From Subdoligranulum variabile (GTDB taxonomy: Bacteria > Bacillota > Clostridia > Oscillospirales > Ruminococcaceae), in contig SFKI01000010.1 in NCBI GenBank assembly GCA_004554775.1, positions 23,184 to 87,183 on the forward strand: a stretch of 64,000 bases of DNA, given 5' to 3'. Numbering within the stretch: the first letter of the stretch is position 1; each line of letters opens with the position of its first letter. A model generated the notes under the pieces. The model did not search any database and had not been told where the DNA came from. It saw only the letters and a program-made list of their open reading frames with translations. The position numbers were made by a program, and so were the translations under genes. Shown piece by piece: positions 9,363-50,200 of this stretch.

Positions 9363-9800
9363 CTGCCTGCAGGGCGAAAGACTCCTCTCGAGGGAAACCA
9401 CAGACTGTCGAAAAAGTGCTCTGTAGGGGCGCACAGTGTGCGCCCGTGCTCATTTCCCGCATGAGTAGCTTTTCCGGGAATGCGCTGCCACGTCAAGCTT
9501 CCGGGCGAACACTGTGCGCCCCTACAGTCTCTACTATAGAGTTTCTTTTGGCCCCGGAGGGGTCAATGTGGAGGGGGACGGAAAAGCGTTAAGAAAAATG
9601 CAGCACTCCTGCATTTTTTAGCTTTTTCGTCGCACGACCACCTCTTTGGGGTTCCTAGGGGCGAGCAGCCCCTAGGCCGGGCCTCCCGCGCGGTCGGAAG
9701 TAGCGGGCACCTTTTCGGTTCCTTTTGGGTGTCCAAAAGGAACAACTAACGGCAGTAGCCCATTAAACACAAGGGAGCCCGCCGCAAGGTGGCGGGCCCC
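9363..9800. repeat. Mosaic intergenic repeat block M1 (REP-like doublet plus C, D and T modules)
   Basis: GTAG-hairpins at 9423-9445 (+) and 9503-9525 (-). The C module GTTAAGAAAAATGCAGCACTCCTGCATTTTTTAGC lies at about 9588-9622. The D hairpin GGTTCCTTTTGGGTGTCCAAAAGGAAC lies at about 9718-9744. A T-type hairpin with loop GCAAGGT lies at about 9776-9797. Confidence 0.85.
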
Positions 9801-9839
9801 GAAAGCCACAACAAAAAAATCAAAGAAGGTACACAACCC

Positions 9840-10223
9840 ATGTCGCTGATTTTTCAATTTCTCCGCATTATCCTTTTCTGTTTTCTTGGCGAACTTTGCC
9901 ATGATTTCCTGCCGCTGCCCATCCCGGCCAGCGTGTACGGGCTGCTGCTTTTGCTGGCAGCGCTCAAACTCGGGTGGGTCAAGCTCGAAAACGTCCGCAC
10001 GGCGGCGCTGTTTTTGATCGGCATTTTCCCGCTGCTGTTCGTGCCTGCGGCGGCGGGCGTCATGGACCTGTGGGCAGAGCTGCACGCCATGCTGCTGCCG
10101 GTGCTGGTGGCGCTGGTGCCCGTTACTTTTTTGGTCATGGCTACGGCGGGCCGCGTTACCCAGCGCTTTGCCAAGGCTGAACCGGAGCTTGAGGAGGAAC
10201 TTGTAAATGACGATGCTGAATGA
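9840..10223 (+). CDS. lrgA: CidA/LrgA family holin-like protein
   Basis: MSLIFQFLRIILFCFLGELCHDFLPLPIPASVYGLLLLL... is a small protein with 4 TM segments, followed by an overlapping LrgB gene. Confidence 0.88.
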   Translation: MSLIFQFLRIILFCFLGELCHDFLPLPIPASVYGLLLLLAALKLGWVKLENVRTAALFLIGIFPLLFVPAAAGVMDLWAELHAMLLPVLVALVPVTFLVMATAGRVTQRFAKAEPELEEELVNDDAE

Positions 10224-10908
10224 TTTCTTGCCCACCTCGGCCACCTGGGGCGTGCTGCTTACGCTGGCGGCGTTTGCCCTGGGCACCTTCATCAACCGCA
10301 AAACGGGGAAAGCAATTTTCAACCCGCTGCTGCTTGGCACGGTGTTCGTCATCGTGTTTTTAAGTGTCTGCAGCATCCCGTACGAGGACTATAAGGCCAG
10401 CGCGTCGCCGGTCAGCTACCTGCTGCTGCCCGCCACGGTCAGCCTGGCTGTGCCGCTGTACGAAAAATGGGACCTGCTGCGCAAAAATGTGCTTGCCATC
10501 GTCATGGGGATTCTGGCGGGCACGCTGGCAAGCCTGGGCAGCGTTCTGGTGCTGGCCCTGCTGCTGAAGCTCGACCACAGCCAGTACATCACGCTGCTGC
10601 CCAAGAGCGTCACCACCGCCATCAGCATGGATGTCAGCCATGAGCTGGGCGGCATTGCGGCCCTGACCGGCGCGATCGTGATCTTAACGGGCATCCTCGG
10701 CGCGCTGATGGCTGAGACTGTCTGCAAGATCTGCCACATCACCCACCCCATCGCGCGCGGCATCGGCATTGGTACCGCCGCCCACGCCGTCGGCACCAGT
10801 AAGGCCCTGCAAATGGGGGAGGTCGAAGGCGCCATGAGCGGCCTCGCCGTCGCCGTCGCCGGTGTCATGACCGCCATCCTCTGCCCGATTTTTTCGTCGT
10901 TTATTTAA
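10207..10908 (+). CDS. lrgB: LrgB family protein (antiholin-like membrane protein)
   Basis: A multi-TM protein with KSVTTAISMDVS and IARGIGIGTAAHAVGT motifs. Confidence 0.9.
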   Translation: MTMLNDFLPTSATWGVLLTLAAFALGTFINRKTGKAIFNPLLLGTVFVIVFLSVCSIPYEDYKASASPVSYLLLPATVSLAVPLYEKWDLLRKNVLAIVMGILAGTLASLGSVLVLALLLKLDHSQYITLLPKSVTTAISMDVSHELGGIAALTGAIVILTGILGALMAETVCKICHITHPIARGIGIGTAAHAVGTSKALQMGEVEGAMSGLAVAVAGVMTAILCPIFSSFI

Positions 10909-10918
10909 ATATTGCCCC

Positions 10919-10995
10919 GGCCCTGCCCATCTTGCGGCAGGGCTTTTTTTCGTGGGGCCGCAATAAAAAGGGGAGCCCCCACAAAGTGGCGGCTC
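10919..10995. terminator. Back-to-back double terminator cassette between convergent lrgB and the AAA+ gene
   Basis: GGCCCTGCC-CATCTTGC-GGCAGGGC plus a T7 run on the plus strand. This is followed by ..GCAATAAAAAGGGGAGCCCCCACAAAGTGGCGGCTCCC, a hairpin preceded by an A-run that acts as a terminator on the minus strand. The cassette is nearly identical in architecture to 18177-18255. Confidence 0.8.
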
Positions 10996-11023
10996 CCTCA
11001 AAGGAATCCGTGTGCGAAAAATC

Positions 11024-13078
11024 TCAATCCAGCTCAAAATCCCCCGGCAACAGCAGGGCGAGATCCGCGTCGGCATCTGCTACCAGGCGGCGGGCTTGGT
11101 TGAGGATCGCTTTTTCCAGCACATTGCGCGCCATGCGGCCGTTGCCGTTGGTTGCGGCGTCGGCGGCCTGCTGCGCATCATACCAATTTATAAGCGGCTC
11201 CTTGCAGCTTTCGTCCAGGATATAGCCCTTGCTCTTGGCAATCGACAGGGTGATGCGGTACAACTCCTCGCCGGTATAGTCCGGGAACTCGATCTGGTTC
11301 GGGAAGCGGCTTGCCAGGCCGGAGTTGGCCGACAAGAACAGCTGCATCTCCTTGGTGTATCCGGCCAGGATCACGACCAGGTCGCCGCGGTTGTCCTCGA
11401 TGCCCTTGACCAGCGTGTCAATGGCCTCCAGGCCAAAGCTGTCCTCGCCGCCGCGGTACAGGCTGTACGCTTCGTCGATAAAAAGCACGCCGCCCAGCGC
11501 ACTCTGGATGACCGTATTCGTCAGCGGGGCGGTGTGGCCGACATAGCGTCCGACGAGGTCGGCACGGGTCACTTCGACCAGTTGCCCGCCGCGCAGCGCA
11601 CCGATGGCCTTGAGATACTTGGCCAGAATGCGCGCGATCGTCGTCTTGCCGGTGCCGGGGTTGCCGGTAAAGATCATGTGCATGTTGACCTCGGCCACCT
11701 TGAGGCCCTGGGCCTTGCGGCGCTGCTGAGCCTGCACGTTTTTGGCGATATCACGCACATAATTCTTGACCTCTGCCAAGCCGACGATGCCATCCAGCTC
11801 TGCCTCGACCGCATCGACATCGCCGCGGTACTGCTGCGGCAGCAGCGCCAGCAGGTCAAACGGCTCGCCGCCCGCCACGCTGAGCAGCAATTTTCCATCC
11901 GCAGCAGTCAGCGCCGCAGGGGTGCCGTCGGCTGGCGGCTCGTCGGCGTCCAGCACGTACTCGGCCAGCGCGCGGTAAGCGGTCTCGCAATAATCGCGCA
12001 TCGCCTGCATGCCGGTCGTTTTGCCGTACTGCGCTGCCAGCAGGTCGCGCACGTCGGCACCCATCGTCAGGGCCAGCCCGCACTGCTTGCGCACCCGCTG
12101 CGCCAGCCAGTTCAGCTCGCGCGCGGCCACGGCGGCCAGCGCTTCGGGCGTGAACGCCTGGGTGCGGCAGATGTCGCCGGACAGCGCATCCACGAACCGC
12201 GCACCGAACTTATCAGCCAGCGCGGTCTCGTCTTTGTTCGAGAAAAACACAAAATATTTACCGCCAGCCGTCAATTCCCCGATGGCCCCGGGCGCGAGCG
12301 CCGTGCCCACGTCCACGAGGATCCCGCGCTGCAGCACGTACCGGCTGCTCAGCGAGAGCGTGCCCTCGATGGCCAGCGTTGACAACATATTTAAATAATT
12401 TGCGGCGCAGCTCTCGTAGTGGTCGAACGCCAAAACCTCCGCATCGGACTGCAGCGCCGCGTACAGATCCTGCAGGAAAAGCTTCTCCTGCGCAGGGCCG
12501 GGGTAGAGCGATAAATCCATCTGTTCAATGGCCGCGCTGCGCAGAACGCCGCGCGTTGCCAGCTCGTCCACCACGCAGGTCAGCGCGTAGTGGCGGCCGG
12601 TGCCGTTGGGGCCGCACAGCAGCAGCAGGTTGCGCGCGCGGGCCGTGTCGCCTGCCGTGCCCATCACAAACGGGCGGCGGAATGCCTTGACCAGCGCCGA
12701 GACAAACGCATCCTGCCCCAGCACCTGGGCCTTGATCTTGTCCGCCACGCCGCCAAAATCGGTGCTGGCCGGCTTGGCCGCTTCGGGCGTCGGCGCGGCA
12801 GTCGTGCCGCCCAGCAGCCCGTCCTGATGCAGCGATTTTGTCAGCTCGCTGCTCATCTTGCGCACACTTTCGGCGGTGGCAGCGCCCGCCTTTTGCACGG
12901 CATCCAGCGCATTGCTGGCGGCGCTCTGCCGCTTTTGGGCGGCGGTCAGCGCATCCAGGGATGCCTGCATCTGCTCTACGGCATTGCTGGCTTCCTCGGC
13001 TTGCTTTGACGTGGCGGCGTACTTTTTGCCGCCCATCAGGCCGCGCACCCAGGCATCATACTGGTCCTCAAGGCTCAT
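11024..13078 (-). CDS. Tandem AAA+ ATPase with a SpoVK/CbbX-like C-terminal module and a degenerate N-terminal P-loop module
   Basis: The C-terminal half has MHMIFTGNPGTGKTTIARILAKYL (Walker A), GGVLFIDEAYSL (Walker B), VILAGY and ASRFPNQIEFPDY, as in the SpoVK/CbbX family. The N-terminal half has LLLLCGPNGTGRHYAL, a Walker A-like motif with Arg in place of Lys. A coiled-coil-like N-terminus is present. The start overlaps the upstream stop (ATGA). Confidence 0.85.
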   Translation of the reverse strand: MSLEDQYDAWVRGLMGGKKYAATSKQAEEASNAVEQMQASLDALTAAQKRQSAASNALDAVQKAGAATAESVRKMSSELTKSLHQDGLLGGTTAAPTPEAAKPASTDFGGVADKIKAQVLGQDAFVSALVKAFRRPFVMGTAGDTARARNLLLLCGPNGTGRHYALTCVVDELATRGVLRSAAIEQMDLSLYPGPAQEKLFLQDLYAALQSDAEVLAFDHYESCAANYLNMLSTLAIEGTLSLSSRYVLQRGILVDVGTALAPGAIGELTAGGKYFVFFSNKDETALADKFGARFVDALSGDICRTQAFTPEALAAVAARELNWLAQRVRKQCGLALTMGADVRDLLAAQYGKTTGMQAMRDYCETAYRALAEYVLDADEPPADGTPAALTAADGKLLLSVAGGEPFDLLALLPQQYRGDVDAVEAELDGIVGLAEVKNYVRDIAKNVQAQQRRKAQGLKVAEVNMHMIFTGNPGTGKTTIARILAKYLKAIGALRGGQLVEVTRADLVGRYVGHTAPLTNTVIQSALGGVLFIDEAYSLYRGGEDSFGLEAIDTLVKGIEDNRGDLVVILAGYTKEMQLFLSANSGLASRFPNQIEFPDYTGEELYRITLSIAKSKGYILDESCKEPLINWYDAQQAADAATNGNGRMARNVLEKAILNQARRLVADADADLALLLPGDFELD

Positions 13079-14262
13079 TGGTCATCCTCCCGGTCGGCTT
13101 TTTGGATTTGGCGGGGCAGCTTGTACGTGTAAAAATCTTTTGCAGTGCATCCGGCACGCCCGCCGCCCGCACAGGCGCAGGCACACGCGCAGCTGGAAGC
13201 ACAGGCGCAGGCGCAGCTGGACGCGCACCCGCTGCTGTGGCGGCCCACGCCGCCCCCGCGCGACGAGCCGCCGCCCGTGTGATAATTTTTGGGCGGGTCG
13301 GTGCGGTAGTAGCCCTTGGGGGGCGGGGCGGTGCGCGCCACGTGGATGGTGTGTACGCCGTTGGTGTACCAGTACCAGTCGTCGGGGTCAAGGCCGCTGC
13401 CGAAGCCGCCGCCCCACTCCGCCGAGCAGGATGCGGAAATAATAATCAGTGCTACGACAAAAATCAGCAGTGACACCACAACCACTGTCAGCCCGAGGAT
13501 CTCATCGGAGGTGAAATCGCCGGTGTTGCCGTTGTCATAATCGGCGGCGGTCAGGGCTGCGTCAGGGTCAAACTCGTTGGCGGTGGTTACGGGCACGGTC
13601 ACATGGATGGTGGCGCTCTGGCCGTGGCCCATCGGGCCAAAGTCCCAGATAAGGTACCCATCTTCCTCGCTGCTGTTGTCGGCCACAAAGCCGTCGCCGC
13701 TGCGCCAGCGCACCTGCATATGCTCAACGACGAGGTCGTCGAACCAGCCGGGCGTGAACTCAAAGGTCGCTGTACCGTCATCTCCAAGGCTGAACAGGTG
13801 GCTTTGATGCACCGAGAACGTGAACCGCACCCGGCTTTCGCCGCCGTTTTTCGCAGCTACCTCGGGCGCGTAGTAGCGCCGCGCAAACACGACCTTGGCG
13901 TAGCTGCCGCCGTCGCCCGAGTATTGCAGGTCGGAGATCGTGTCGGTCAGCGGGGTCAAATCCTCGGCGTAGGCGTTGGGCAGGCCGATCTTGACCCACG
14001 AGAGGTAGTCGGTCTGGTCGCCGCCGATGACCTGCCAGGTAATATCGTAGGTGATGTCCGCCGAGCCGTCTGCCCGCAGGTCCACCGTGACGAGATAGTC
14101 GGGAATATAATCCATATCCCCGTCATCAGCATACGGCGCGATATCGGCTGAATTTGCGGTGGAATCGTCGGCCTTGGCCGCGAAGGGGAACAGGAGCGTG
14201 GCTGCAACAAAAATGAAGAATAAAAAGGTGGTCAGGCGCGGATAAAATGTCTTTTTCTGCAT
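13075..14262 (-). CDS. Signal-peptide / single-TM protein with a Cys-Ala repeat cytoplasmic tail (ectodomain tentatively DUF2207-like)
   Basis: Signal peptide: MQKKTFYPRLTTFLFFIFVAATLLFPFAAKA. The ectodomain is about 250 aa. The TM segment is ILGLTVVVVSLLIFVVALIIISA. The tail is ...GGGSSRGGGVGRHSSGCASSCACACASSCACACACAGGGRAGCTAKDFYTYK. The gene is tightly packed between the rSAM and AAA+ genes. Confidence 0.75.
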   Translation of the reverse strand: MQKKTFYPRLTTFLFFIFVAATLLFPFAAKADDSTANSADIAPYADDGDMDYIPDYLVTVDLRADGSADITYDITWQVIGGDQTDYLSWVKIGLPNAYAEDLTPLTDTISDLQYSGDGGSYAKVVFARRYYAPEVAAKNGGESRVRFTFSVHQSHLFSLGDDGTATFEFTPGWFDDLVVEHMQVRWRSGDGFVADNSSEEDGYLIWDFGPMGHGQSATIHVTVPVTTANEFDPDAALTAADYDNGNTGDFTSDEILGLTVVVVSLLIFVVALIIISASCSAEWGGGFGSGLDPDDWYWYTNGVHTIHVARTAPPPKGYYRTDPPKNYHTGGGSSRGGGVGRHSSGCASSCACACASSCACACACAGGGRAGCTAKDFYTYKLPRQIQKADREDDQ

Positions 14263-14263
14263 A

Positions 14264-15649
14264 TCAGCACCCCTCCTGCATCGGTGTGTCGCCCAGCTGG
14301 CACAGCCGCTTCATGTGGGCGCTCTCGATCCGGATGGCACAGCACTCGGGGCTGCGCCAGATGCGGGGCCACGGGGTGCGCAGCATGTTGCCCAGGCCGT
14401 GGCCGGTCAGCCAGCTTTGGCAGGGCAGTACGGTGCCGTCGGGCGCGACCGCCATGTTGCTAAGGCAGGCACCGCAACTTGGGATCTGCGTAAAGCCAAG
14501 CCCGGTCAGGGTGTCCTCGTCCAGCCAGCCGGGGCTGGTGAAGTTCACTTCCATCCCGTGCGAAAGCGCAAAATCCATCGCAGGGCGCAGCGCGTCGGTA
14601 AGCTCTGCGGGGGTCAGGCGCACGCTGCGGCTGGCATCGGCATTGGCGTTGCCAGCCGGGATCAGCCCGCTGCACGTCAGGTATCGGATGCCCAGCTCAT
14701 GCGCAAATTGCACGGTGCTAAGATAATTTTTATTCAAGCTGCAGAGCGGCGTGTTCAGGCTGACGTTCAGCCCTGCGGCCAGTGCGTTCTTGATGCCGTT
14801 CACGGTGTCGGTGTAACCGTCCACGCCGACCAGCTCATTGTGTACGGCTTCGTAGGCAGAATAGAACGTAATTTGCACTGCGTCAAGGCTGGCGGCGCGC
14901 AGCTCCTTGCACATGGCGCTGGTCAGCATGCGGCCGTTGGTGTTCAGGCGCGTTACAAACCACTGCGCGGCCTGCACCAGCTTTACCAGATCGTGCCGCA
15001 AGGTCGGCTCACCGCCGGTAAAGGTCAGCTGCGGAATGCCGATGCTGCGGCATTTTTCGATGACCGCCAGCCACTGGTCGGTGTCCAGCTCGGGCACGGC
15101 GGAAAGCGGCTGATTGGCGGCGTAGCAGTGCAGGCATTTTTGATTGCAATGCCACGCGTTGTCCTTTATCATGGAGGAGATCATCAGGTCCATGCGGTGC
15201 GGCGCGGCCATGCGGTGTGCGTATTCGGCCAGCGAAAGGGGCTGGATGTGCAGCGGCGGCTCCTGGCCGCGCGCCACGGCGATGAGGCAGTCCAGCATCA
15301 TCTGCAAGTCGGATTCGATCTGCAAAGGCTCGGTCTTACGATAAATTTTACGTGTCGCGGCCACGGCCTGCGCGCGGATGGCCGACCAGTCGGCGTCTTT
15401 CAGCTCGGCACCGGCGTGGGGCTGCAGCGCTTCGATGAGGTTGGTCAGCAGAATGGCCCAGCTGAGATTCAGCGGCAGGATGTCCTGGCCGTTCAAAATG
15501 GCTACAAACGGGGTGGTGCGGTCGGGCTTGGTACACGGGATCAGGTGGATGCGCACGACGCCCGGGCCGTCGGGGTCAAGCGTAACGTGCCGCACGCGGT
15601 TCAAATGGCCGCGCAAAAACGCCCGCTCGCCGTAGGAGAGATGCTTCAT
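14264..15649 (-). CDS. Radical SAM enzyme with C-terminal SPASM domain and an N-terminal extension of about 165 aa
   Basis: CNQKCLHCY is a CX3CX2C cluster motif. TFTGGEPTL is a GGE motif. The C-terminal Cys-rich SPASM-like region is IPSCGACLSNMAVAPDGTVLPCQSW. The stop lies 1 nt from the downstream start. Confidence 0.88.
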   Translation of the reverse strand: MKHLSYGERAFLRGHLNRVRHVTLDPDGPGVVRIHLIPCTKPDRTTPFVAILNGQDILPLNLSWAILLTNLIEALQPHAGAELKDADWSAIRAQAVAATRKIYRKTEPLQIESDLQMMLDCLIAVARGQEPPLHIQPLSLAEYAHRMAAPHRMDLMISSMIKDNAWHCNQKCLHCYAANQPLSAVPELDTDQWLAVIEKCRSIGIPQLTFTGGEPTLRHDLVKLVQAAQWFVTRLNTNGRMLTSAMCKELRAASLDAVQITFYSAYEAVHNELVGVDGYTDTVNGIKNALAAGLNVSLNTPLCSLNKNYLSTVQFAHELGIRYLTCSGLIPAGNANADASRSVRLTPAELTDALRPAMDFALSHGMEVNFTSPGWLDEDTLTGLGFTQIPSCGACLSNMAVAPDGTVLPCQSWLTGHGLGNMLRTPWPRIWRSPECCAIRIESAHMKRLCQLGDTPMQEGC

Positions 15650-15799
15650 AGGGGATTTCCTCCCAAAACAGACTCGTGTCTGTTATAAATTTTGGTACAA
15701 TTTTTAATTTTTATAGGGAAAGTATATCATATTTACGGGGGAATTACAATAAGGGTTTGATTTTGGGGGAGGGGTGCGGCTGCCGGGGGGGGCGGCAGC

Positions 15800-16112
15800 G
15801 TAAGATTCTGCGGGCGAGCAATGCTCGCCCCTACAGTAGCCAAAATAGCAGGTGCAGAGTGTGGCTCCACTTCAAGGGGAGTCCAGACTGTCGAAAAAGT
15901 GCATTGTAGGGGCGAACAGTGTTCGCCCGGGGGATTTGATGGCAGCGCAAAATTGCACGGGCGGATATAGAATCCGCCCCTACGCCAATCAAAAATTTGG
16001 CCCCGAAGGGGTCAATCGGAGAGGGATGGAAAAGCGTTAAGAAAGGAAAGCCTTGCGGCGGCAGCCCATGATAAAAGGCCCAGCCGCAAGGTAGGCAGGG
16101 CTGGCCGCCGCC
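15800..16112. repeat. Mosaic intergenic repeat block M2
   Basis: GTAG-hairpins at 15812-15834 (-), 15906-15928 (+) and 15959-15983 (-). The y module TTTGGCCCCGAAGGGGTCAAT is present. CCTTGCGG/CCGCAAGG hairpins lie at about 16045-16110. Confidence 0.85.
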
Positions 16113-16213
16113 CCATCCACGGCGCAAAACAATCCGTAAATGCCTACAAATTGTATACATACCACCGTAAAAAATCCGACAGAATTTACCGGAATATCTG
16201 TGAATTTCCCCAC

Positions 16214-16242
16214 TTGCCAACAGCCTGAAAATGTGGCATAAT
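16214..16242 (+). promoter_or_regulatory. Sigma70-like promoter upstream of the small ORF and cls
   Basis: TTGCCA (16214-16219), 17 nt spacer, CATAAT (16237-16242). Confidence 0.4.
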
Positions 16243-16301
16243 ACTAAAGGAAGATCCGGGGTGTACACCCCCATTATAAATGTATAAGGAGGGGGAACCG
16301 C

Positions 16302-16463
16302 ATGCCGAATGGGATCTACATCCAGACGGAGTACCACGGCAAGCTGATCCGCAAGATCGTTTGCAACGGGGAAGAACGCTGGTTTATCGGATCTGATTGT
16401 GCCGTCACCTTCATGACCATGGATGATTGCATGGCCGAGATCGACGCACGTCTCCACGCCTGA
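16302..16463 (+). CDS. Small hypothetical protein (53 aa)
   Basis: A strong RBS (TAAGGAGGGGG) lies 6 nt before the ATG. The product is MPNGIYIQTEYHGKLIRKIVCNGEERWFIGSDCAVTFMTMDDCMAEIDARLHA. It falls below the ORF-track length cutoff. Codon usage resembles neighbouring genes. Confidence 0.5.
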   Translation: MPNGIYIQTEYHGKLIRKIVCNGEERWFIGSDCAVTFMTMDDCMAEIDARLHA

Positions 16464-16576
16464 TCCTCGCACGGTTGGCGGCTTTGCCCGCCTGCACCCC
16501 TCGGCTTGCCGCCCCCCTGCGGGGCCATGCCGGGGGCTTTTTCTTTTCAGTAGTTTCTACAAAAAAGGACATATCT

Positions 16577-18151: not shown

Positions 18152-18176
18152 TAGCCTTTTGTTGCAAATCCTGTCC

Positions 18177-18255
18177 GGCCCTGCCCATTTTGCGGCAGGG
18201 CTTTTTTTGTGGGATGCCGCAATAAAAAGGGGAGCTGCCGCAAGGCGGCAGCTCC
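18177..18255. terminator. Back-to-back double terminator cassette between convergent cls and the ndpA-like gene
   Basis: GGCCCTGCC-CATTTTGC-GGCAGGGC plus a T7 run on the plus strand. Then GCAATAAAAAGGGGAGCTGCC-GCAAGGC-GGCAGCTCCC, which acts on the minus strand. Confidence 0.8.
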
Positions 18256-18269
18256 CGTAAAGCGGGGCA

Positions 18270-19274: not shown

Positions 19275-19400
19275 TGGGAACGCTCCTTTATTTGGCATAG
19301 GTATTAGTATACCACAATTTGCCGGGGATGGCTACAGCGTTTTGGGGGATGCTTGGCTGTGTGGGCCGATGCGTCGGCCCGCCGAAAGGAGCATGGTTTT

Positions 19401-39760: not shown

Positions 39761-39778
39761 CACGAAAAGGAGCAAAAC

Positions 39779-40252: not shown

Positions 40253-40282
40253 CGCCCGCCGTTTACGAGAAAGGAGCAAAAA

Positions 40283-41328: not shown

Positions 41329-41332
41329 GGGG

Positions 41333-43000: not shown

Positions 43001-43353
43001 AGAACATGGACATTTTGCTCATTGACGGCGTGGCGCTGCCCGCCCCGAACGAGTACAAGGTGCAGCTTTCCGACCTGGACAGCAGCGACACCGGCCGCAC
43101 CGAGGACGGCGTGATGCTGCGCAACCGCGTGCGGGAGGGCATCGCCAAGATCTCTGCCAGCTGGGCGGCGCTTTCCACCGCCGATTGCGCACGGATTTTG
43201 AACGCTGTAACGCCGGATAGTTTCGAGGTTGCCTACTTTTTCGGCGCCATGCGCACCGCAAGGATGTACGCGGGCGACCGCACCGCCAACCTGAAAGCCG
43301 CCCGTGAGGGGCAGGCCGTATGGGAGGTGGCGGTGGATTTGATTGAGTTTTGA
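42997..43353 (+). CDS. Small distal-tail-position protein (118 aa)
   Basis: The gene overlaps the tape measure stop and occupies the Dit slot. The family is uncertain. Confidence 0.5.
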   Translation: MKNMDILLIDGVALPAPNEYKVQLSDLDSSDTGRTEDGVMLRNRVREGIAKISASWAALSTADCARILNAVTPDSFEVAYFFGAMRTARMYAGDRTANLKAAREGQAVWEVAVDLIEF

Positions 43354-43369
43354 TTTTGTTTATGCCTGG

Positions 43370-44020
43370 CCGGGAGTCACCACCTTGCGGTGACTCCCTT
43401 TTTTAGTGGGTTTCTACCCGCTGTGTGTTCCTTTTGGAACCCCAAAAGGAACCGAAAAGGGTCCCGCTACTTCCGATAGCGCGCGCTTGGCGGCGCACAA
43501 CGAGCGCCGCCATCCCGCAAAGCGGGCCCGCTCGTGTGCTTCAAAGCCCCGCTGGGGCTTTGATCGCTGCGCGACCGCACAGCAGCCCGGCCCAGGGGAT
43601 TGCGGGGTTGCGAGCAAGGGGCCACGGTTGAGCGCAGCGAAACCGGGGAGCGAGCAATGTTCGCCCCAGCGGGGCGAATAACCGCACGAGCGAGTTTGCG
43701 CAGCAAACTGGCGGCGCTCGTTGTGCGCCGCCAAGCGCTCGCCCCTGGGAACCCCAAAGATGTGGTCGAGAAAGCAAAAAGCTAAAACGTGCAGGAGTGC
43801 TGCACGTTTCTTAACGCTTTTTGCTTCCTCTCCGTTTGACCCCTCCGGGGCCAAAAGAAACTCTATGGGGGTAGAGGGTGGCTCCCCTTGAGGGGAGCCT
43901 TTAAAACCGTGTAGGGGCGGGCAATGCTCGCCCGCAAGAATCCCACGTCACTGCCAAACTCTACGGGCGGATATAGAATCCGCCCCTACAGCCCACTTGT
44001 CCCCGCAGGGTGGGGACAAC
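43370..44020. repeat. Mosaic repeat block M13: long-form element of about 650 bp bounded by inverted T hairpins
   Basis: Left T: GGGAGTCACC-ACCTTGC-GGTGACTCCC (43372-43398) plus a T-run. D follows, then two F modules (inverted relative to each other, about 43485-43745), then C, y and w. A class-B GTAG-hairpin lies at 43911-43933 (+) and a class-A one at 43965-43989 (-). Right T: TTGTCCCC-GCAGGGT-GGGGACAA (about 43995-44017). Confidence 0.88.
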
Positions 44021-44071
44021 CGGTTAAGGCGCGAACATTGCCATCAAAAACGAAAGGAGCATCACCCCCAA

Positions 44072-46042
44072 ATGCACAACACACCCAAACAATACCAAAC
44101 CGCCATTCGCGCGCCGACCCGCACCGACGGGCTGGCGGGCAGGCTTACCCTGGCCGACGGCGGCGTGATCCCGCTGGACGACAGCGCGGTCCTTGCCGGG
44201 TCGGTCTGCGTGGACAACCAGTGCGTGTCTGGGCAGGAGCTGGCGTTCGGCGGGGTGTACATGGGGCAGGCGTCGCTGCAGCTGCGTACCGAACTTTCGA
44301 GTGCTGCTTTCTACGATGCAGCGCTGGAAATTGACTACAAACTTCGCCTGCCCGACGGCAGCTGGTACACCCTGCCCGTTGGCCGCTACACCGTCGCCGA
44401 GGCCGAGCGCAGCGCCGCCGTCGTCAGCCTGACCGCCTACGACCACATGCTCAAGCTCGAGCGGCCCCTTGCGGGCAGCGTCATCCAGGGCGACGCCTAC
44501 GCGATGCTGACCCAGATCGCCGAGACCTGCGGCGTCGAGCTGGGCCAGACCGAGGCCGAGATCCGCGCGCTTTCGCCCAACGCCGAACTGCTGCGCCAGC
44601 TGGACGCGGGCTACCATGTGTCCACCTGGCGCGATTGCGCGGGCGCGGTGGCGCAGCTGCTGGCCGGGTTTGCGACGTTCGACCGCCTTGGGCGGCTCGT
44701 CGTGCGGCAGTTTGGCGGGGCACCCTGCGCGACGCTTGGTGAAAACGCACGCACCAACGCGAAAATATCTGACTTCTCCTGCCATTATGCGGCGTTGACG
44801 ATCGAGACAGACGACGACAGCTACACCGCAGGCACCGAGGGCGACAGCGGCCTGGCCATGACCATCGCCGACATGCCGCTGGCCGAGAGCGGCCTGCCGA
44901 GCACGAAGCAGGGCATCTGCGACGCACTGTTTGCCCGGCTGCAAAATATGGATTATACGCCCATGACCGTGACGATGCCCGGCGACCCCGCGCTGGAACT
45001 GGGCGACCGGCTGACCGTGCCAACGAAGGACGGCGCGCCCCAGACGCTGGTGACGCACCTGGTCTGGAAGTTCCGCGGCACCCAGACGCTGAAGGGCGTG
45101 GGCAAGAACCCCTACCTGACCGGCACCACCCGCACCGACACGCGGCTGCGCAGCCTGCAAAAGCAGACCGCAGCCAACAAAGTCATCTACTACAGCTTTT
45201 CTAACGGGTCTGACCTGGTGGTGCGCGGCGACGGCGCGGAGATCAGCGCGGCCAATCTGACCTTTGTCACGACGCAAAACACCTCGGCGATGTTCCTTGC
45301 GCAGCTGCTGCTGACGGCGGAACCCGAGACCAAAACGGTTGACCTGCCCGTGACCAGCACCGACGAAACGCTGCCCACGGACGCTGCCGCCGCCCTGGAA
45401 CGCGATGCCGCGCTGACGCTGACGGTGCGGTATTACATGGACGATTCGCTCATCGGGACGTATGTTCCCACCCAGCGGCTGGTGCGCGGCAGCCACGCGC
45501 TGGTGCTGTTTTACCCGTTCCCGGATCTGCAGGGCGCGGCCAGCCACCGCTGGAGCGTGCGGCTGCTTTGCACCGGCGGCGTGGTCAGGATCGGCAAAGG
45601 CCAGCTGCGCGCGACCATCACCGGCCAGGGCATGGCCGCGGGCGACATCTGGGACGGCACGCTGACGCTGGAGGAGACCCTCGCCCGCGTGACCCGCCCG
45701 GCCAACCTGCGGCAAATCCTTGCAATTTACGGCGATGTTACGACGGAAATGCAAAGGTCCCTCGGCAGCACGGCGGCAGAGCGCCTCGCGCGCATCCCGC
45801 GCACAACGCCGCGCCGCGCCGTCAACGGGCAGGCCCCCAAGCGCAGCACGACCTACGCGTATTACGGCCTGCCGCTTGCCTTTGATGCCGATTTTGTGCA
45901 GCTGGATGCCGACGGCTGGCGGCTGCGCACAAGCTGGCAATACGACGCTGTACCGCAGGAAATCGACACAGGCACACTGCTGTGCGCAGCGGCAGATACG
46001 GGCAATTTGGCCGAAGTAAGCAAAATTGAGGTGAGTATATGA
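44072..46042 (+). CDS. Tail-associated (Tal-like) baseplate/tip protein (656 aa)
   Basis: Large ORF after the Dit slot, with an AAAGGAG RBS. Size and position are typical of siphovirus Tal or minor structural proteins. Confidence 0.65.
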   Translation: MHNTPKQYQTAIRAPTRTDGLAGRLTLADGGVIPLDDSAVLAGSVCVDNQCVSGQELAFGGVYMGQASLQLRTELSSAAFYDAALEIDYKLRLPDGSWYTLPVGRYTVAEAERSAAVVSLTAYDHMLKLERPLAGSVIQGDAYAMLTQIAETCGVELGQTEAEIRALSPNAELLRQLDAGYHVSTWRDCAGAVAQLLAGFATFDRLGRLVVRQFGGAPCATLGENARTNAKISDFSCHYAALTIETDDDSYTAGTEGDSGLAMTIADMPLAESGLPSTKQGICDALFARLQNMDYTPMTVTMPGDPALELGDRLTVPTKDGAPQTLVTHLVWKFRGTQTLKGVGKNPYLTGTTRTDTRLRSLQKQTAANKVIYYSFSNGSDLVVRGDGAEISAANLTFVTTQNTSAMFLAQLLLTAEPETKTVDLPVTSTDETLPTDAAAALERDAALTLTVRYYMDDSLIGTYVPTQRLVRGSHALVLFYPFPDLQGAASHRWSVRLLCTGGVVRIGKGQLRATITGQGMAAGDIWDGTLTLEETLARVTRPANLRQILAIYGDVTTEMQRSLGSTAAERLARIPRTTPRRAVNGQAPKRSTTYAYYGLPLAFDADFVQLDADGWRLRTSWQYDAVPQEIDTGTLLCAAADTGNLAEVSKIEVSI

Positions 46043-47127
46043 ACGTAACAAGCCAATGTGTGCAAACACAGAGCGGCACGAGCCTGACGGCGGAGCTTGC
46101 GGTGCAGGCCGGGCAGTGGGTGCTGGCGACCGTGACCACCCGCAGCGCCACGGCCTACCCCGACGGCTGGACGCTGGTGCATGAGAGTGCCGCGCTGAAC
46201 AGCAGCAACACCAACCAAAGAATGGCGATGCTATGCAAAAAAGCAGACGCCGACGGCACGGCGCGCTGCACCGTCACCCAAAGCAGCGCGGCGCGCATCT
46301 ACCTGAACCTCATCGCGTTTGCGGGCGACGACGTCGCGGGTTTTGCCTACTGCGAGGACAGCGAGATGCTGCAAAACAGCCAGTACAGCAGCTTCACCCG
46401 CCCGCGCCCGGCCGCCGCGCGCCTGGTGTGGGGGTGCTCGGCCCCGACGTGGCTCACCAGCCCGCGCAAAACCTGGACGTGCGGCGACCTGACGGCCATC
46501 AGCCTGCCGTACGCCAATCAGGCGCGCCAGGCGAATTTTATCGACACCGGCGAGGCCGACACCCGCACGTTTGTGCCGGATACCGACGCTACAGCGGCCA
46601 TTATTTTCTGCGTTGAGATTTTAGAGCCGACCGTTGCCTACCGCGAGCGGTGGCTCGTGCGCAGCGGCGGGAAGCTCTACAAGCCCGGGGACGCCGCGCT
46701 GACGCCGCTGGCCGATGCCGCGCTGACCGGCGCGCTGTTTTTGGAGCAGGGCAGCGAGCAGCCGCCCGACCCCGCCGCACTGGCCGCGCTGCCCAGCCCC
46801 GAAGTGCTGTACTGGAAGGAGGGCGGTGCGCCGCCGACGCTGCGCCTGACCGTACACGGCCTGCCCGCGCCGCAGACGCTGACTGCCGAGGTCGATATGC
46901 GCGATGCCGCTGGGCTGGCGGGCGTGCTGGCCGAGTTTGCGGGTGACGTGCAGATCACCTACACCGCCGACGGCACGCCCCACGGGCCGATGCCGCTGGC
47001 CGAGTTTGCCGCGCTTGACCCGGCTGCGCTGTGGGAAAGCATCGCTGCAACGCGAAAAATGCCCATCCGCCTGCAGCTGGCGGGCGGCGCTGTGCTGAAA
47101 AAGCTGAAGTTCACCTACGAAAGCTGA
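46039..47127 (+). CDS. Phage tail-tip hypothetical protein (362 aa)
   Basis: Start overlap (ATGA-type) with the upstream gene. Assignment rests on position in the tail module. Confidence 0.55.
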   Translation: MNVTSQCVQTQSGTSLTAELAVQAGQWVLATVTTRSATAYPDGWTLVHESAALNSSNTNQRMAMLCKKADADGTARCTVTQSSAARIYLNLIAFAGDDVAGFAYCEDSEMLQNSQYSSFTRPRPAAARLVWGCSAPTWLTSPRKTWTCGDLTAISLPYANQARQANFIDTGEADTRTFVPDTDATAAIIFCVEILEPTVAYRERWLVRSGGKLYKPGDAALTPLADAALTGALFLEQGSEQPPDPAALAALPSPEVLYWKEGGAPPTLRLTVHGLPAPQTLTAEVDMRDAAGLAGVLAEFAGDVQITYTADGTPHGPMPLAEFAALDPAALWESIAATRKMPIRLQLAGGAVLKKLKFTYES

Positions 47128-47138
47128 AAGGAGACACT

Positions 47139-48593
47139 ATGCCGATTCATGGCCACACCAAAATTGAACTGACGAACCAGACGACCGGCGAGGTCGAGGT
47201 CGTCGAGAAGGATAACCTTGTAACAAACGCTGTAGCGCAGATTTTCACCTCGTTCAACGGCGGCGCCAACCTGCGCACGGCCAACGCCGGCGGCGAATAC
47301 ACCGGCTGGGAGCTGCCCGAAAGCCTGTACGGCGGCCTGCTGCTGTACGACCGCGCGCTGGGCAGCGACCCCGACACCGTGTTTGCCCCGCCCGAAGCCC
47401 GGCTGGTGGGCACCGGCGTGCCGCGCATGTCCAATACCGGCAACGGCGTGCTGCGCGGCAGCTACAACAAAATTGAAAGCAACATCGACGTAAAAAACGG
47501 CGTTGTGACGTTTGTTTACGACTTTGCCACCAGCCAGGCCAACGGGGTGATCGCCTCGGTCTGCTTAACGCACCGCTACGGCGGCTACTTTGACGAGTCC
47601 GTCGCCGCGCTGGCCGAGGCCGACGGCGCGCGCTCGGGCCAGTACCAGTACAGCGGCCTGTTTGACGGCGCGAAGCCTTTCCCGCGTGCGCCCGGCCAGA
47701 GCGATACGACCTTGTTTGGCCGCCCGCTGTACGCCGACCCCGAGAGCGACGAGATGCTTTTTGCGGCGCTGGATGGCACCAATCTGGTGCTGCGCCACGT
47801 AACGGGTTTGACGACCGAGCTTGACCTGTTCAACCCGGTGGGGACGTCGCGGGTAAAAAACATCGAAACCATGGACATTTCTGACGTGATGTACGCCAAG
47901 GGCGACGGCTACTACACCGCCGTGGGTTACGATGCCGATGCCGACCAGATCTACGTCGTCAGCACCGAGTGCGCGCCGCTGAAGCCCACCGACCACATCC
48001 GCGTGCGCACCTACGACCGAAAAACGCGCGCGGCCAAGACCTACGAGTTTGCCAACCCCACCGGCGCGCAGCTGATGGGCGGTGTGGGCGGCGACACCCC
48101 GCTGCTGCGCAACACGGGCCGTGTGCTGGGCGGGTGCCTGTACGTGGCGGGGTATGTGTCCGATGTATCGTACTCTGCGCCCAAGCTGCAGCCGTTTTAT
48201 AAGATCCCGCTGGCCGACCCGAGCAAGGTGGAAAGCATCGACAACCATGGACTGATGTTGCCGATGATCCACGACGCGCACGACGGAAAGCTCTACTATT
48301 ACGGCAGCCTTTACGCAGGCTACGGCCGCGTGCTGAACACCGTGACGAAGGAAATATTGGCGATGGAGGCGTTCAACGATGCTGACCGCTACCCCTACTG
48401 CTGCGTGCCGGTTTTGGGCTGCCCGGTGGCACCGTTCATGCTGCAATACGCCTACCCCTCGGGCGAAGGGGAGCTGCGGCAGGGCATCCGCCGCAACTAC
48501 CTGGCCACCATCAACGACCTGGCCGCGCCGGTGGAAAAAACCGCTGATAAAACGATGAAAATTACCTATACACTGCGAAAGGCGGCGGAATGA
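47139..48593 (+). CDS. Phage tail-tip / possible receptor-binding hypothetical protein (484 aa)
   Basis: A GAAAGGAG RBS is present. It is the last structural ORF before the lysis genes. Confidence 0.55.
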   Translation: MPIHGHTKIELTNQTTGEVEVVEKDNLVTNAVAQIFTSFNGGANLRTANAGGEYTGWELPESLYGGLLLYDRALGSDPDTVFAPPEARLVGTGVPRMSNTGNGVLRGSYNKIESNIDVKNGVVTFVYDFATSQANGVIASVCLTHRYGGYFDESVAALAEADGARSGQYQYSGLFDGAKPFPRAPGQSDTTLFGRPLYADPESDEMLFAALDGTNLVLRHVTGLTTELDLFNPVGTSRVKNIETMDISDVMYAKGDGYYTAVGYDADADQIYVVSTECAPLKPTDHIRVRTYDRKTRAAKTYEFANPTGAQLMGGVGGDTPLLRNTGRVLGGCLYVAGYVSDVSYSAPKLQPFYKIPLADPSKVESIDNHGLMLPMIHDAHDGKLYYYGSLYAGYGRVLNTVTKEILAMEAFNDADRYPYCCVPVLGCPVAPFMLQYAYPSGEGELRQGIRRNYLATINDLAAPVEKTADKTMKITYTLRKAAE

Positions 48594-49222
48594 TGCCGGG
48601 CATTTTTACGGGCCGCGTGCAGATAAAATACCGCTATGGCCGCTACGGGTACACGCGCGGCGGCGGCAAGATCTGGCACGGCGGCATGGATATAGTCGGG
48701 TTGGATTCGACTGATATACGCATGCCGTATTATAAAGACAAGCGCATTGCCGGCACCGTGACCCGCGCGCGCCGCGTGACCGACCACAGCAGCAAAACGT
48801 GGGAATGGGGCTGGTACGTCTGCGTAAAACTGGACGCAAACCAGACGCCGGACGACGTGAATTTTTTGTACTTTTGTCACTGCCGCGAGCTGAAAGTGCA
48901 GCCGGGCGACCGCGTCGCCAGCGGCGATCTGCTGGCCGTGATGGGCCAAAGCGGCAACGCGGCGGGCGGCTACGACCACTGCCACCTGGAAGCACGCGCC
49001 ACGGCAAACGGCAAGGGGCTGGACCCCAGCCAGTACGCGGGCTGCCCCAATGCGGTGGGCGTGTACGGTGAGCAACCGAAAACAAACGATGAACCGATGA
49101 ATATGCAGCTTATCACGGTAGGCCCGGTGAGCCGCGGTGACGCCGACGCGGTCTACACGCTGTGCCGCAGCCGCGGGCTGGTGGACGCCGGTTTGTACAA
49201 AAGTGAATGGAGTGTTGGATAA
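48590..49222 (+). CDS. M23 family peptidase (phage endolysin candidate)
   Basis: HGGMD is the HxxxD motif and HCHLE is the HxH motif. The gene lies directly before the holin. Confidence 0.75.
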   Translation: MMPGIFTGRVQIKYRYGRYGYTRGGGKIWHGGMDIVGLDSTDIRMPYYKDKRIAGTVTRARRVTDHSSKTWEWGWYVCVKLDANQTPDDVNFLYFCHCRELKVQPGDRVASGDLLAVMGQSGNAAGGYDHCHLEARATANGKGLDPSQYAGCPNAVGVYGEQPKTNDEPMNMQLITVGPVSRGDADAVYTLCRSRGLVDAGLYKSEWSVG

Positions 49223-49665
49223 TGGAAAAGAAAAACGGGTTTTTGTACGCAAAAGCCGCCGTGGCCGCGCTGTGCGGGGCGTTTACGGCGGCGTTCGGCT
49301 GGTTGGGCTGGCTGGTGCTGGCCTGGGCGGTGTGCATGGCGCTGGACTGGCTTAGCGGCAGTGCGGCCGCCGCCAGCAAAGGGGAATGGTCCAGCGCCGC
49401 GGCGCGCGCGGGCATCTGGCACAAGGCGGGCATGGTGGTGGTCGTCTGCGTGGCGGCGCTGACAGACCTTGTTTTGTGCGTGGCTATGCAGAATTTGCCG
49501 GGATTTGATTTGGACGTTGATGGAGTGGTGCTGCCGGTGGTGCTGGTGTGGTACATTTTTACCGAGCTGGGCAGCATTGCCGAGAACGGCGCGGCAATGG
49601 GGGCACCGGTGCCGGGGTGGCTTTTGTCGCTTCTTGCAGAAGGCAAGGAGAAAGTTTCTAAATAG
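49222..49665 (+). CDS. Phage holin (toxin secretion/phage lysis holin family, TIGR01593-like)
   Basis: The product has multiple TM segments. The C-terminal motif IFTELGSIAENGAAMGAPVP is characteristic of this holin family. The start (TAATG) overlaps the lysin stop. Confidence 0.8.
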   Translation: MEKKNGFLYAKAAVAALCGAFTAAFGWLGWLVLAWAVCMALDWLSGSAAAASKGEWSSAAARAGIWHKAGMVVVVCVAALTDLVLCVAMQNLPGFDLDVDGVVLPVVLVWYIFTELGSIAENGAAMGAPVPGWLLSLLAEGKEKVSK

Positions 49666-49675
49666 CGCGTTCGGC

Positions 49676-50200
49676 GGCCCTGCCTACCTTGCGGCAGGGC
49701 CTTTTGTTAGAGGGCTTCTTCCGGGAGGTCTTCCTTTTTTGTGACCAAAAAAGGAAGCGAAAAAAGTCTCGCTGTTCCGAGGCAGCCGCTTGGCGGCGCA
49801 CAACGAGCGCCGCCATCCCGCAAAGCGGGCCCGCTCGTGCGCTACGCGCAATCCCCGGCCCAGGGGGCCCGCCCCCTGGGAACCCCAAAGGGGGGGGGTC
49901 GTTCGGCGGAAAAGCTAAAAAATGCAGGAGTGCTGCATTTTTCTTAACGCTTTTCCGCCGCCCGACAGATTGACCCCTCCGGGGCCAAATTTTGGTTGGC
50001 GTAGGGGCGGATTCTATATCCGCCCGGGGAGTTTGGCGGTGACGGTGATTCTTGCGGGCGAGCAATGCTCGCCCCTACGGTGACTAAAGGCTTTCCTTGA
50101 GGGGAGCCTTTAACTCTACGCCCCTAGGCCGTGCCCCGCGCCTCGGAAGTAGCGGGAGCCGCCCAAATAAAAAAGGGGACACCGCAAGGTGGTGTCCCCT
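49676..50200. repeat. Mosaic repeat block M14, between the phage lysis genes and the pilus cluster
   Basis: T hairpin GGCCCTGCC-TACCTTGC-GGCAGGGCC (49676-49701). D, F, C and y modules follow. A class-A GTAG-hairpin lies at 50001-50025 (+) and a class-B one at 50056-50078 (-). A w module follows. The inverted T is GGGGACACC-GCAAGGT-GGTGTCCCC (about 50175-50199). Confidence 0.88.

Follow-up and report, generated by a model that had tools for sequence, protein, structure and literature searches.

The way in which repetitive extragenic palindromic (REP) elements are handled by REP-associated tyrosine transposases (RAYTs) is established in outline for E. coli (PDB 4ER8). Work on REP/RAYT systems has been confined almost entirely to Proteobacteria; we describe here a dense system that resembles the bacterial interspersed mosaic elements (BIMEs) of E. 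coli, in a 64-kb stretch of DNA from Gemmiger sp. (this whole stretch is called the window below). The window holds 24 units, each made of the tetranucleotide GTAG with a hairpin directly 3' of it. We consider it probable that these units are GTAG-tagged REP elements, organized in mosaics and in doublets similar to those of BIMEs and of REP doublets forming hairpins (REPINs), and that they have a cognate RAYT.

The closest described system is that of E. coli, where REPs and BIMEs occur with the transposase TnpAREP (RayT/YafM, 4ER8), an enzyme of subclass 2.2 (PMC6006769), or 'Group 2' (10.1101/119735). In both systems a 5' GTAG stands directly before a G+C-rich imperfect palindrome outside genes, and two hairpin types (Y and Z there, A and B here) alternate in orientation within mosaics that include other motifs. 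The enzymes are alike as well, each being an apparently single-copy Y1/HUH protein with the Y---NP signature and the W, Q, (E/D), H and R contact residues, and 4ER8 is the top fold match of the Gemmiger protein. The two systems differ in the host, which here belongs to the Clostridia, and in unit length (23-25 nt against ~35 nt in E. coli). They differ also in the transposase gene, which in Gemmiger lacks flanking REPs, carries two units in frame in its open reading frame (ORF) and encodes a protein that is only ~20% identical to RayT of E. coli. Enterobacterial REPs are specific to their lineage, whereas the class A hairpin described here recurs verbatim across phyla.

Three further systems invite comparison. 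In the REPIN-RAYT system of Pseudomonas (Bertels and Rainey; 'Group 3') inverted doublets with short spacers dominate, as they do here (18 of the 24 units), the RAYT is single-copy and vertically inherited, and doublets make one long hairpin, as our B/B doublets do (z -5.9 to -8.1); however, the Gemmiger doublets mostly join A with B and form two stem-loops, and the Gemmiger RAYT has no flanking REPINs. Compared by description, the units also resemble the GTAG super-family of Di Nocera et al. 2013 (PMC3733652), short stem-loops with an unpaired GTAG at one end, many of which lie close by in opposite orientation, with some families common to several species. Those GTAG repeats were reported in Proteobacteria, Cyanobacteria, Chloroflexi and the Planctomycetes-Verrucomicrobia-Chlamydiae (PVC) group, and REPs inside genes were already noted there (PMC3733652). 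The TnpA enzymes of IS200/IS605 insertion sequences (IS608, ISDra2) share the HUH/Y1 fold and recognize sub-terminal hairpins on single strands, but these elements are multi-copy, move as whole elements with distinct left and right ends and have no GTAG-tagged REP population; IS200 scores are low here.

The text of the PMC3733652 survey contains no occurrence of Firmicutes or Clostridia, and our literature searches found nothing on REPs in Firmicutes. 'Group 1' RAYTs are 'also found in the Clostridia', with flanking 16-mers of ~12 occurrences and no REP family described (10.1101/119735), so that the likeness to our case lies in RAYT-family proteins of Clostridia accompanied by moderately repeated flanking 16-mers. 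The system reported here thus departs from the described ones in its host range, in the cross-phylum identity of one REP and in a gene-internal REP pair. Gemmiger is among the most abundant human-gut genera, and the REP system likely shapes its intergenic architecture and strain-level variation. The units may also break metagenome assemblies; contigs with many family members are 1-2 kb at most. The verbatim cross-phylum hairpin and its in-frame copies in RAYT genes make two questions testable: by what means a RAYT and its REP remain matched, and whether the RAYT locus seeds or polices REP populations.

Units, doublets and mosaics in the window

A structure-based scan for GTAG immediately before a hairpin whose stem is 7 bp or longer recovered every unit, 10 of them in + and 14 in - orientation, against a chance expectation of ~0.02-0.2; a reading as chance palindromes was rejected. 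The first-pass annotation of this DNA had listed at least 23 copies in two classes. All of these are real, and the scan raised the count to 24 with an additional unit, GTAGGGGGCGGCGTCCTCGACGCCCC, on the - strand at 22636-22661. By pattern search all nine proposed class A units (GTAGGGGCGGATTCYATATCCGCCC) proved exact, with the loop TCTAT (...GATTCTATATC...) in seven and TCCAT (...GATTCCATATC...) in the two at 26232 and 33870. The general pattern GTAGGGGCG-N(11-13)-CGCCC gave nine exact matches, all of them class A units, where 0.02 were expected, and no degenerate class A copy was found across the window at up to 5 mismatches.

Class B (GTAGGGGCGNNCNNNGNNCGCCC) is represented by 13 units at 0 mismatches, with 0.21 expected even when two mismatches are allowed; the fourteenth proposed copy, at 26288-26311, departs from the class in having one G more and is a 24-nt variant, GTAGGGGGCGAACATTGTTCGCCC. 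Covariation had been claimed for the class B stems in general. It holds for nine of the 14, which are perfectly paired as GCAC/GTGC, GAGC/GCTC or GAAC/GTTC (3 copies each), but the remaining five are hybrids, their two arms belonging to different stem types, and contain one mismatch or G.T pair. Taken together, the units measure 23-26 nt, with stems of 8-9 bp and loops of 3-5 nt. In all 24 the GTAG is unpaired and lies immediately 5' of the stem, and the next base 3' of the unit is G. Folding of single units as DNA gave -9.6 and -10.5 kcal/mol (z ~ -5.2).

All 24 units are intergenic, with ~79% of the window coding according to an approximate gene map made from gene calls and from GC3, the G+C content (GC) of third codon positions. 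The whole window had no Rfam match at the gathering threshold, which places the units outside the described RNA families, and ARAGORN detected neither tRNA nor tmRNA in it. A CRISPR array was rejected on account of the irregular spacing, and intrinsic terminators were rejected because the units lack a T-run and are used in both orientations.

Nine inverted doublets (Table 1) hold 18 of the 24 units and leave 6 singlets. Their spacers range from 2 to 57 nt, and their orientation is always + then -, with GTAG at the outer ends (9/9). The inverted pairs had been likened to REPINs; the pairs are present, but whole-doublet folding of the REPIN type holds only for the two B/B doublets, while the A/B doublets resemble the Y/Z arrangement of BIMEs. 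The B/B doublet at 9423-9525 folds into one long hairpin of -39.8 kcal/mol (z -8.1), and that at 33731-33806 into one of -28.2 kcal/mol (z -5.9).

The intergenic regions that bear units are unusually long (300-900 bp) and are mosaics of many other repeated modules. Chief among these is the X module, ~95-120 nt in length, which consists of an A-run/T-run hairpin (AAAACGTGCAGGAGTGCTGCACGTTT) plus GACCCCTCCGGGGCC and usually abuts a class A unit. In addition to the example in Table 1, copies lie at 9547-9666, 15996-16044, 19680-19799, 26147-26230, 33905-34024, 39040-39097, 43762-43856 and 49895-49989, and a composite block of X, A, spacer and B is repeated at least 6 times. With X modules standing beside the units, these intergenic regions are BIME-like mosaics, and they fit the E. 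coli BIME picture better than a pure REPIN picture.

RAYT genes and their internal units

In loci fetched with the class A 25-mer, RAYT-like ORFs were found by tblastn to adjoin or overlap the units. The proteins form two subfamilies, a class-A-type with 649 database hits and a class-B-type with 2644 hits, the latter including 'transposase [Fumia xinanensis]' and proteins named by JGI 'REP element-mobilizing transposase RayT'. Against the NCBIfam model REP_Tyr_transpos (NF047646, cut-off 80 bits), some class-A-type members pass, proteins P0168 (83 bits) and P0194 (84.6 bits) lie above the cut-off, the protein of locus L146 scores 73.9 and class-B-type proteins score 57-69. Scores against transpos_IS200 (NF033573) are 20-31 bits, far below its cut-off of 55.

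The best Protein Data Bank (PDB) sequence match of the class-A-type RAYT is 4ER8, E. coli TnpAREP. For the Gemmiger protein P0385 phmmer gave no hit among PDB sequences at E <= 0.01, so that a fold search was needed. An AlphaFold (AF2) model of the Gemmiger sp. protein P0253, with a mean confidence (pLDDT) of 87.4, matched 4ER8_A best (E 5.1e-8, template-modelling (TM) scores 0.57/0.61), followed by the IS608 and ISDra2 TnpA structures. Among 58 sequences, in P0253 numbering, the HUH histidines H80 and H82 as well as Y151 and N155 are invariant and P156 is present in at least 90%, a pattern corresponding to the Y---NP signature of class 2 Y1 HUH enzymes (PMC6006769). Likewise W130, Q131, D136 and R140 are invariant and H137 is present in at least 90%. 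These five residues align to W94, Q95, E100, H101 and R104 of E. coli, with WQ..F.(D)H.IR conserved in the alignment to 4ER8; the E. coli residues are those that contact GTAG, and the E-to-D replacement is also known from REP-associated subclasses (PMC6006769).

A metagenome scan for the inverted class A pair inside a gene (A...A') returned 120 loci, 117 of which contain a RAYT ORF, and the same scan of viral_contigs gave 0 hits. About 100 of these ORFs are variants of one 173-aa protein on contigs of ~60% GC. This protein belongs to cluster P0241, which has 2740 members and bears the name 'transposase [Gemmiger formicilis]'; G. formicilis carries WP_333490653.1. The gene order rfbC-ABC2-ABC-GT2-RAYT-GT2 (two ABC-transporter-type and two family 2 glycosyltransferase genes) is syntenic in P0242, P0249, P0253, P0275 and P0385, whose identities span 61-98%, and the Gemmiger RAYT abuts or overlaps both GT2 neighbours. 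On the basis of this synteny the RAYT appears to be single-copy, vertically inherited and not like an insertion sequence (IS), a behaviour that is typical of RAYTs (10.1101/119735).

Flanking of the RAYT gene by units varies among loci. Locus L146 has the classical arrangement, in which a RAYT without internal units has class-A-like doublets on both sides. Partial flanking is seen in L087, L170 and L306, with one unit upstream, and in L308, with a doublet downstream. A lineage of ~46% GC provides a second conserved housekeeping context, in which the RAYT lies between hisS and aspS. In L159-L166 the RAYT and the end of hisS share 4 nt; in L308-L309 the RAYT begins 13 nt beyond hisS and has an A/A doublet just downstream.

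Several lines connect this locus to the species of the window. The RAYT P0385 (WP_320903614.1) is identical to MDD6648406.1, which lies between the GT2 genes MDD6648405 and MDD6648407 in GCA_029225205.1, and to MDY4772938.1, which we assign to GCA_034115585.1 by our own pairing of accession series to assemblies. Proteins identical to those of the window occur in the same accession blocks (MDD6649426, MDD6649428 and MDY4772286). The uracil phosphoribosyltransferase beside the RAYT locus is also MCI6383475.1, from the block MCI6383xxx-4xxx that holds the window-identical proteins MCI6384412-21; we take this block to be GCA_022776885.1, the sole NCBI assembly found to carry the region of the window. 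From these links the species of the window very likely carries a P0385-type RAYT. The Y1/RAYT gene anticipated by the first-pass annotation therefore exists, in G. formicilis and in two metagenome-assembled genomes (MAGs) with window-identical proteins, but in Gemmiger it lacks the expected flanking units.

All class-A-type RAYT genes contain two class A units in frame in the ORF, inverted and with GTAG outward. They encode VGADSISA(R) and (R)AD(M/I)ESAPT, which bracket the HUH motif and form loops in the P0253 model, one between strand 1 and helix A and the other after the HUH strand. Class-B-type proteins carry VGA-x3-RP and GR-x3-APT, for example VGA(R/S)IARP and GRAM(R/L)APT, and back-translation of these peptides yields class B hairpins; VGASIARP and GRAMLAPT, the most frequent forms, match the GAGC/GCTC variant of the window. 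V-G-A and A-P-T, encoded by GTAGGGGC and GCCCCTAC, are invariant or nearly so in both subfamilies.

The conservation extends to the codons. Eleven class-A-type RAYT genes, whose hosts span 39-64% GC, were fetched via their proteins. Where the amino acid is the same in an alignment column, 92% of pairs agree in codon inside the units versus 46% outside, and in one gene a double change is both synonymous and compensatory (GCC...TCG). In class-B-type proteins both internal units imply one and the same stem in 59 of 100 cases, versus 19 expected. It is possible, and we put it forward tentatively, that in these Clostridia-type subfamilies the RAYT's own gene is a REPIN, its internal inverted pair being kept at the nucleotide level despite the base composition of the host and co-varying as a functional cis element. 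If so, the pair could serve self-recognition, autoregulation or as a master copy that seeds and homogenizes the genomic REPs, and such a role would explain why one exact 25-mer is found from Clostridia to Desulfobacterota. In PMC6006769, PMC8266576 and PMC2817692 we found no report of REPs lying inside a RAYT gene.

Some further observations concern the RAYT genes and the search for them. In a MAG of Lentimicrobiaceae (L134, 2605-2723) the first internal unit is tandemly expanded, VGADSISAPNTDSISAPNTDSISAPNTDSI; the hairpin-coding segment can slip with the frame intact. The RAYT genes of L174, L176, L297, L301, L305, L306 and L310 have a G+C of 0.49-0.55, which is 6-10 points under that of their host contigs (58-64% GC), and they write the HUH motif in codons that end in A or T. 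Since RAYT genes use such codons even where the host has 60% GC, a G+C-rich codon pattern for MPNHFHA, intended for finding high-GC RAYTs, was dropped. The candidates P0149, P0168, P0221, P0187, P0194 and P0269 were set aside for the species of the window, as they come from other organisms (39-61% GC) with no shared intergenic modules, and served as independent RAYT genes in the codon test.

Distribution, turnover and competing explanations

A scan for exact copies of the class A 25-mer in the Genome Taxonomy Database (GTDB), with each species represented by one genome, gave at least 120 matches. By our own count of accession prefixes among the matches listed, these come from at least ~80 different assemblies. 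Within the same listed matches the hosts are mostly Oscillospiraceae, Ruminococcus-like and unclassified Clostridia, with three G. formicilis isolates and Fumia xinanensis among these; Christensenellaceae, Coriobacteriaceae, Raoultibacter and Lentimicrobiaceae occur as well. The groups reached include Desulfobacterota, Coriobacteriia and Bacteroidota; three of the hosts are Desulfobacteraceae MAGs, one of them a 5.7-Mb contig with at least 4 copies and ~41% GC. Hosts of 36-41% GC also occur among the matches listed, and there the class A unit is often paired with stem-compensated variants such as GTAGGGGCAGAATCTATTTCTGCCC. Class A is therefore not a lineage-specific REP, one and the same 25-mer being common to several phyla.

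To the 24 units in the 64 kb of the window can be added the RAYT loci fetched by protein, with 3.5 units per 10 kb, or ~2.4 per 10 kb by our own subtraction of the six units inside RAYT genes; loci that had been selected for holding a unit have 5.0-9.0 per 10 kb.

Class-A-like 25-mers were gathered with a structure-blind pattern that did not require pairing. Among 60 distinct sequences, 6 or more of the 8 stem pairs form in 45, and all 8 form in 17. Across the 45, GTAG and the loop TC-AT are invariant, while compensatory double changes occur at 4 of the 8 stem pairs. Double-change cells number 33 versus 8.2 +/- 2.2 in shuffles, none of 500 shuffles reached 33, and controls with slid pairing collapse. 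What is conserved by compensatory change is thus the structure of the stem and not its sequence alone.

The host is a Gemmiger sp. (Oscillospiraceae, Clostridia), in keeping with the Clostridia-like origin first surmised, as identical copies of proteins of the window are found in MAGs that NCBI lists as Gemmiger sp. or 'Subdoligranulum variabile'. Window positions 1-19280 are matched at 99.3-99.7% identity by ten public contigs. Among the GTDB species representatives the closest at the DNA level is CAVKDR01, which is 81-88% identical, piece by piece, over 32.9-40.2 kb of the window and shares its intergenic modules. CAVKDR01 is labelled 'Bulleidia sp.', probably wrongly, because its contigs L053, L067, L110, L119 and L139 have 56-61% GC and have genes and intergenic modules in common with the Gemmiger window.

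Comparison of close strains reveals presence/absence polymorphism of the units. L025, a contig from IMG/VR, is 97.7% identical to window positions 35734-45600 but lacks the B/A doublet 43911-43989 and the ~250-bp palindromic module 43488-43740, and has an extra B/B doublet ~60 nt after the doublet 39098-39175, near 39236. L003 is 99.4% identical up to 15776, and different DNA then replaces the three-unit cluster 15812-15983. Comparable differences exist among G. formicilis-like contigs and at the RAYT locus (L319 vs L310). These differences demonstrate turnover, although not by themselves transposition. Overall, the REP/RAYT interpretation of the first-pass annotation is supported: the motif is found on other CAVKDR01 contigs, in G. 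formicilis isolates and in the many further assemblies counted above and exceeds chance, a Y1/RAYT gene exists among the relatives, and copies differ between strains.

We propose the following mechanism. On single-stranded DNA a unit would form an 8-bp G+C-rich hairpin with an unpaired 5' GTAG, and hairpin and tag would together be what a single-copy, domesticated HUH/Y1 enzyme, RAYT/TnpAREP, recognizes; in the Gemmiger lineage that protein is predicted to be the one encoded between two glycosyltransferase genes. This enzyme may bind, cleave and mobilize the units, cutting and rejoining single-stranded DNA next to the tag and in that way seeding, excising and homogenizing units and doublets in trans. 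Such action in trans would explain their high identity, their intergenic restriction and their turnover between strains. The units may in addition have a function for the host, for example in termination, mRNA stabilization or protein binding.

Several observations weigh against the view that the units are REPs with a cognate RAYT. The Gemmiger RAYT gene is not flanked by REPs, so that the REPtron arrangement is not seen there. The window contains no RAYT, and none was seen on a contig overlapping it; a tblastn search of the window with the Fumia RAYT, E. coli RayT and IS200 TnpA as queries gave no match (the latter two queries were entered by hand, and the RayT query scored 179 bits on NF047646). 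The link of the RAYT to the window species consists of proximity within NCBI accession blocks in two MAGs, not of one contig. The Gemmiger RAYTs P0241 (78.2 bits) and P0385 (76.8 bits) fall just under the 80-bit cut-off of REP_Tyr_transpos and are named by NCBI merely 'transposase', and the presumed activity of RAYTs in these subfamilies is deduced from motifs and a modelled fold. Most doublets are A/B heterodimers that form two separate hairpins and no single long REPIN hairpin. The densities suggest several hundred units genome-wide, a number extrapolated from the window and the fetched loci only, and the covariation set was filtered at 6 or more of 8 pairs, which inflates the percentage paired. 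Finally, the strain differences are replacements of intergenic segments and not clean insertions with recognizable target sites, so that recombination could yield them without transposition.

The last point also agrees with a different explanation, according to which the units are regulatory or structural hairpins of the host (terminators, stabilizers of mRNA 3' ends or protein-binding sites) that selection maintains and that recombination or gene conversion spreads, no transposase being involved. Every unit is intergenic, many are downstream of genes, they are embedded with terminator-like A-run/T-run hairpin modules, and a decay series of class A is absent from the window, as purifying selection predicts. 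However, T-runs are absent from the units, which stand in either orientation, also within the divergent promoter regions 15650-16426 and 20353-20652, and termination leaves unexplained both the invariant unpaired GTAG and the exact conservation of a G+C-rich 25-mer across hosts that range from 36 to 64% GC. The co-occurrence of the units with a RAYT whose GTAG-contact residues are retained, and whose gene contains the unit or has it on its flanks, points to a specific protein partner. We therefore regard this explanation as unlikely when taken alone; it is compatible with the units being REPs, and the REPs of E. coli combine both aspects (PMC2817692).

Two other origins are less probable still. 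Were the units the ends of multi-copy IS200/IS605 elements, or derivatives of them of the miniature inverted-repeat (MITE) or palindrome-associated (PATE) transposable element type, they would be mobilized by an IS-encoded TnpA; the Y1/HUH fold, which the associated protein shares with the TnpA of IS608 and ISDra2, and the weak NF033573 hits agree with this. It is nevertheless very improbable, as REP_Tyr_transpos scores of 57-85 bits stand against 20-31 for IS200, the RAYT is syntenic among housekeeping genes over 61-98% identity and apparently single-copy, which is a RAYT signature (10.1101/119735), neither the window nor the surroundings of units yielded an IS200 TnpA or a TnpB, and the units bear a GTAG tag of the REP type. 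Slightly less credible again is that the intergenic units are debris or gene-conversion tracts from the hairpins within RAYT genes, a by-product and not recognized elements, an idea suggested by the in-frame occurrence of both the class A 25-mer and class B stems in those genes. Against it, the flanks of intergenic units hold no RAYT-derived sequence (tblastn of RAYTs against the window gave nothing), several units per 10 kb contrast with one RAYT gene per genome, and the RAYT of L146 has no internal units yet is flanked by doublets.

Feature coordinates and neighbouring modules

Table 1. Hairpin units and associated features (window positions unless a locus is named)
Feature	Position	Strand	Evidence
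Class B, GCAC/GTGC; left arm of B/B doublet 9423-9525	9423-9445	+	pattern and structure scan
Class B, hybrid GCAC/GTTC; right arm of doublet 9423-9525	9503-9525	-	pattern and structure scan
Class B, GAGC/GCTC; singlet	15812-15834	-	pattern and structure scan
Class B, GAAC/GTTC; left arm of B/A doublet	15906-15928	+	pattern and structure scan
Class A; right arm of B/A doublet with 15906	15959-15983	-	pattern, structure scan, folding
Class A; singlet adjoining X module	19645-19669	-	pattern
Class B, hybrid GGGC/GCTC; singlet	20434-20456	-	pattern and structure scan
Class A; left arm of doublet with 22636-22661	22590-22614	+	pattern and structure scan
Extra GTAG-tagged hairpin GTAGGGGGCGGCGTCCTCGACGCCCC; right partner of 22590	22636-22661	-	structure scan
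Class B, GCAC/GTGC; left arm of B/A doublet, 2-nt spacer	23835-23857	+	pattern
Class A; right arm of doublet with 23835	23860-23884	-	pattern
Class B, GCAC/GTGC; singlet	24039-24061	-	pattern
Class A, TCCAT loop; left arm of A/B doublet	26232-26256	+	pattern, repeat family D12
Class B variant with extra G, GTAGGGGGCGAACATTGTTCGCCC; right arm of doublet with 26232	26288-26311	-	structure scan
Class B, GAGC/GCTC; left arm of B/B doublet 33731-33806	33731-33753	+	pattern
Class B, hybrid GAGC/GTTC; right arm of doublet 33731-33806	33784-33806	-	pattern
Class A, TCCAT loop; adjoins X module	33870-33894	-	pattern
Degenerate class A arm, partner of 35718-35740	35661-35685	+	repeat family D12, 81% identical to doublet 26231-26307
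Class B, hybrid GAAC/GCTC	35718-35740	-	pattern and structure scan
Class A; left arm of A/B doublet	39098-39122	+	pattern, folding
Class B, GAAC/GTTC; right arm of doublet with 39098	39153-39175	-	pattern, folding
Class B, hybrid GGGC/GCTC; left arm of B/A doublet	43911-43933	+	pattern
Class A; right arm of doublet with 43911	43965-43989	-	pattern
Class A; left arm of A/B doublet	50001-50025	+	pattern, folding
Class B, GAGC/GCTC; right arm of doublet with 50001	50056-50078	-	pattern, folding
X module, example, ~95-120 nt type	22485-22579	.	repeat families D3, D7, D16, D18, D19
Gene-internal unit pairs in RAYT genes of Clostridia, outside the window	L310 10133-10290; L301 10130-10293; L167 246-403; L176 10118-10275; L087 2565-2758		

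Other reusable modules accompany the genes of the window. A palindromic module, CGCTTGGCGGCGCACAACGAGCGCCGCC...GGCGGCGCTCGTTGTGCGCCGCCAAGCG, lies at 43488-43740 and also at 19799-19855, 34024-34080 and 49787-49843. Downstream of many genes we find terminator-like hairpins followed by T-runs and a second hairpin (CCTTTTTGG..CCAAAAAGG; repeat families D1, D4, D5 and D9), at 7154-7195, 10915-10956, 18173-18214, 22380-22481, 26045-26146, 28243-28344 and 49672-49773. Gene ends are in this way assembled from a small set of modules.

A cluster of phage-like structural genes occupies 32826-50000, with REP doublets between its genes. It includes a terminase large subunit (34180-35424), a portal protein (35821-37143), a major head protein (37388-38242), a head-tail adaptor, a tape measure protein (41333-43000) and a tail protein (43997-46042), and it looks like a long-resident prophage remnant or a cluster resembling a gene transfer agent (GTA). 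The presence of this cluster accounts for the match of the 'viral' IMG/VR contigs L014, L015, L025 and L029 to the window. Toward the end of the window, at 58854-63794 on the - strand, an ORF of 1646 aa contains many degenerate Gly-rich repeats (..VGGI(I/A)GYN..) and has no Pfam hit at E <= 1e-5.

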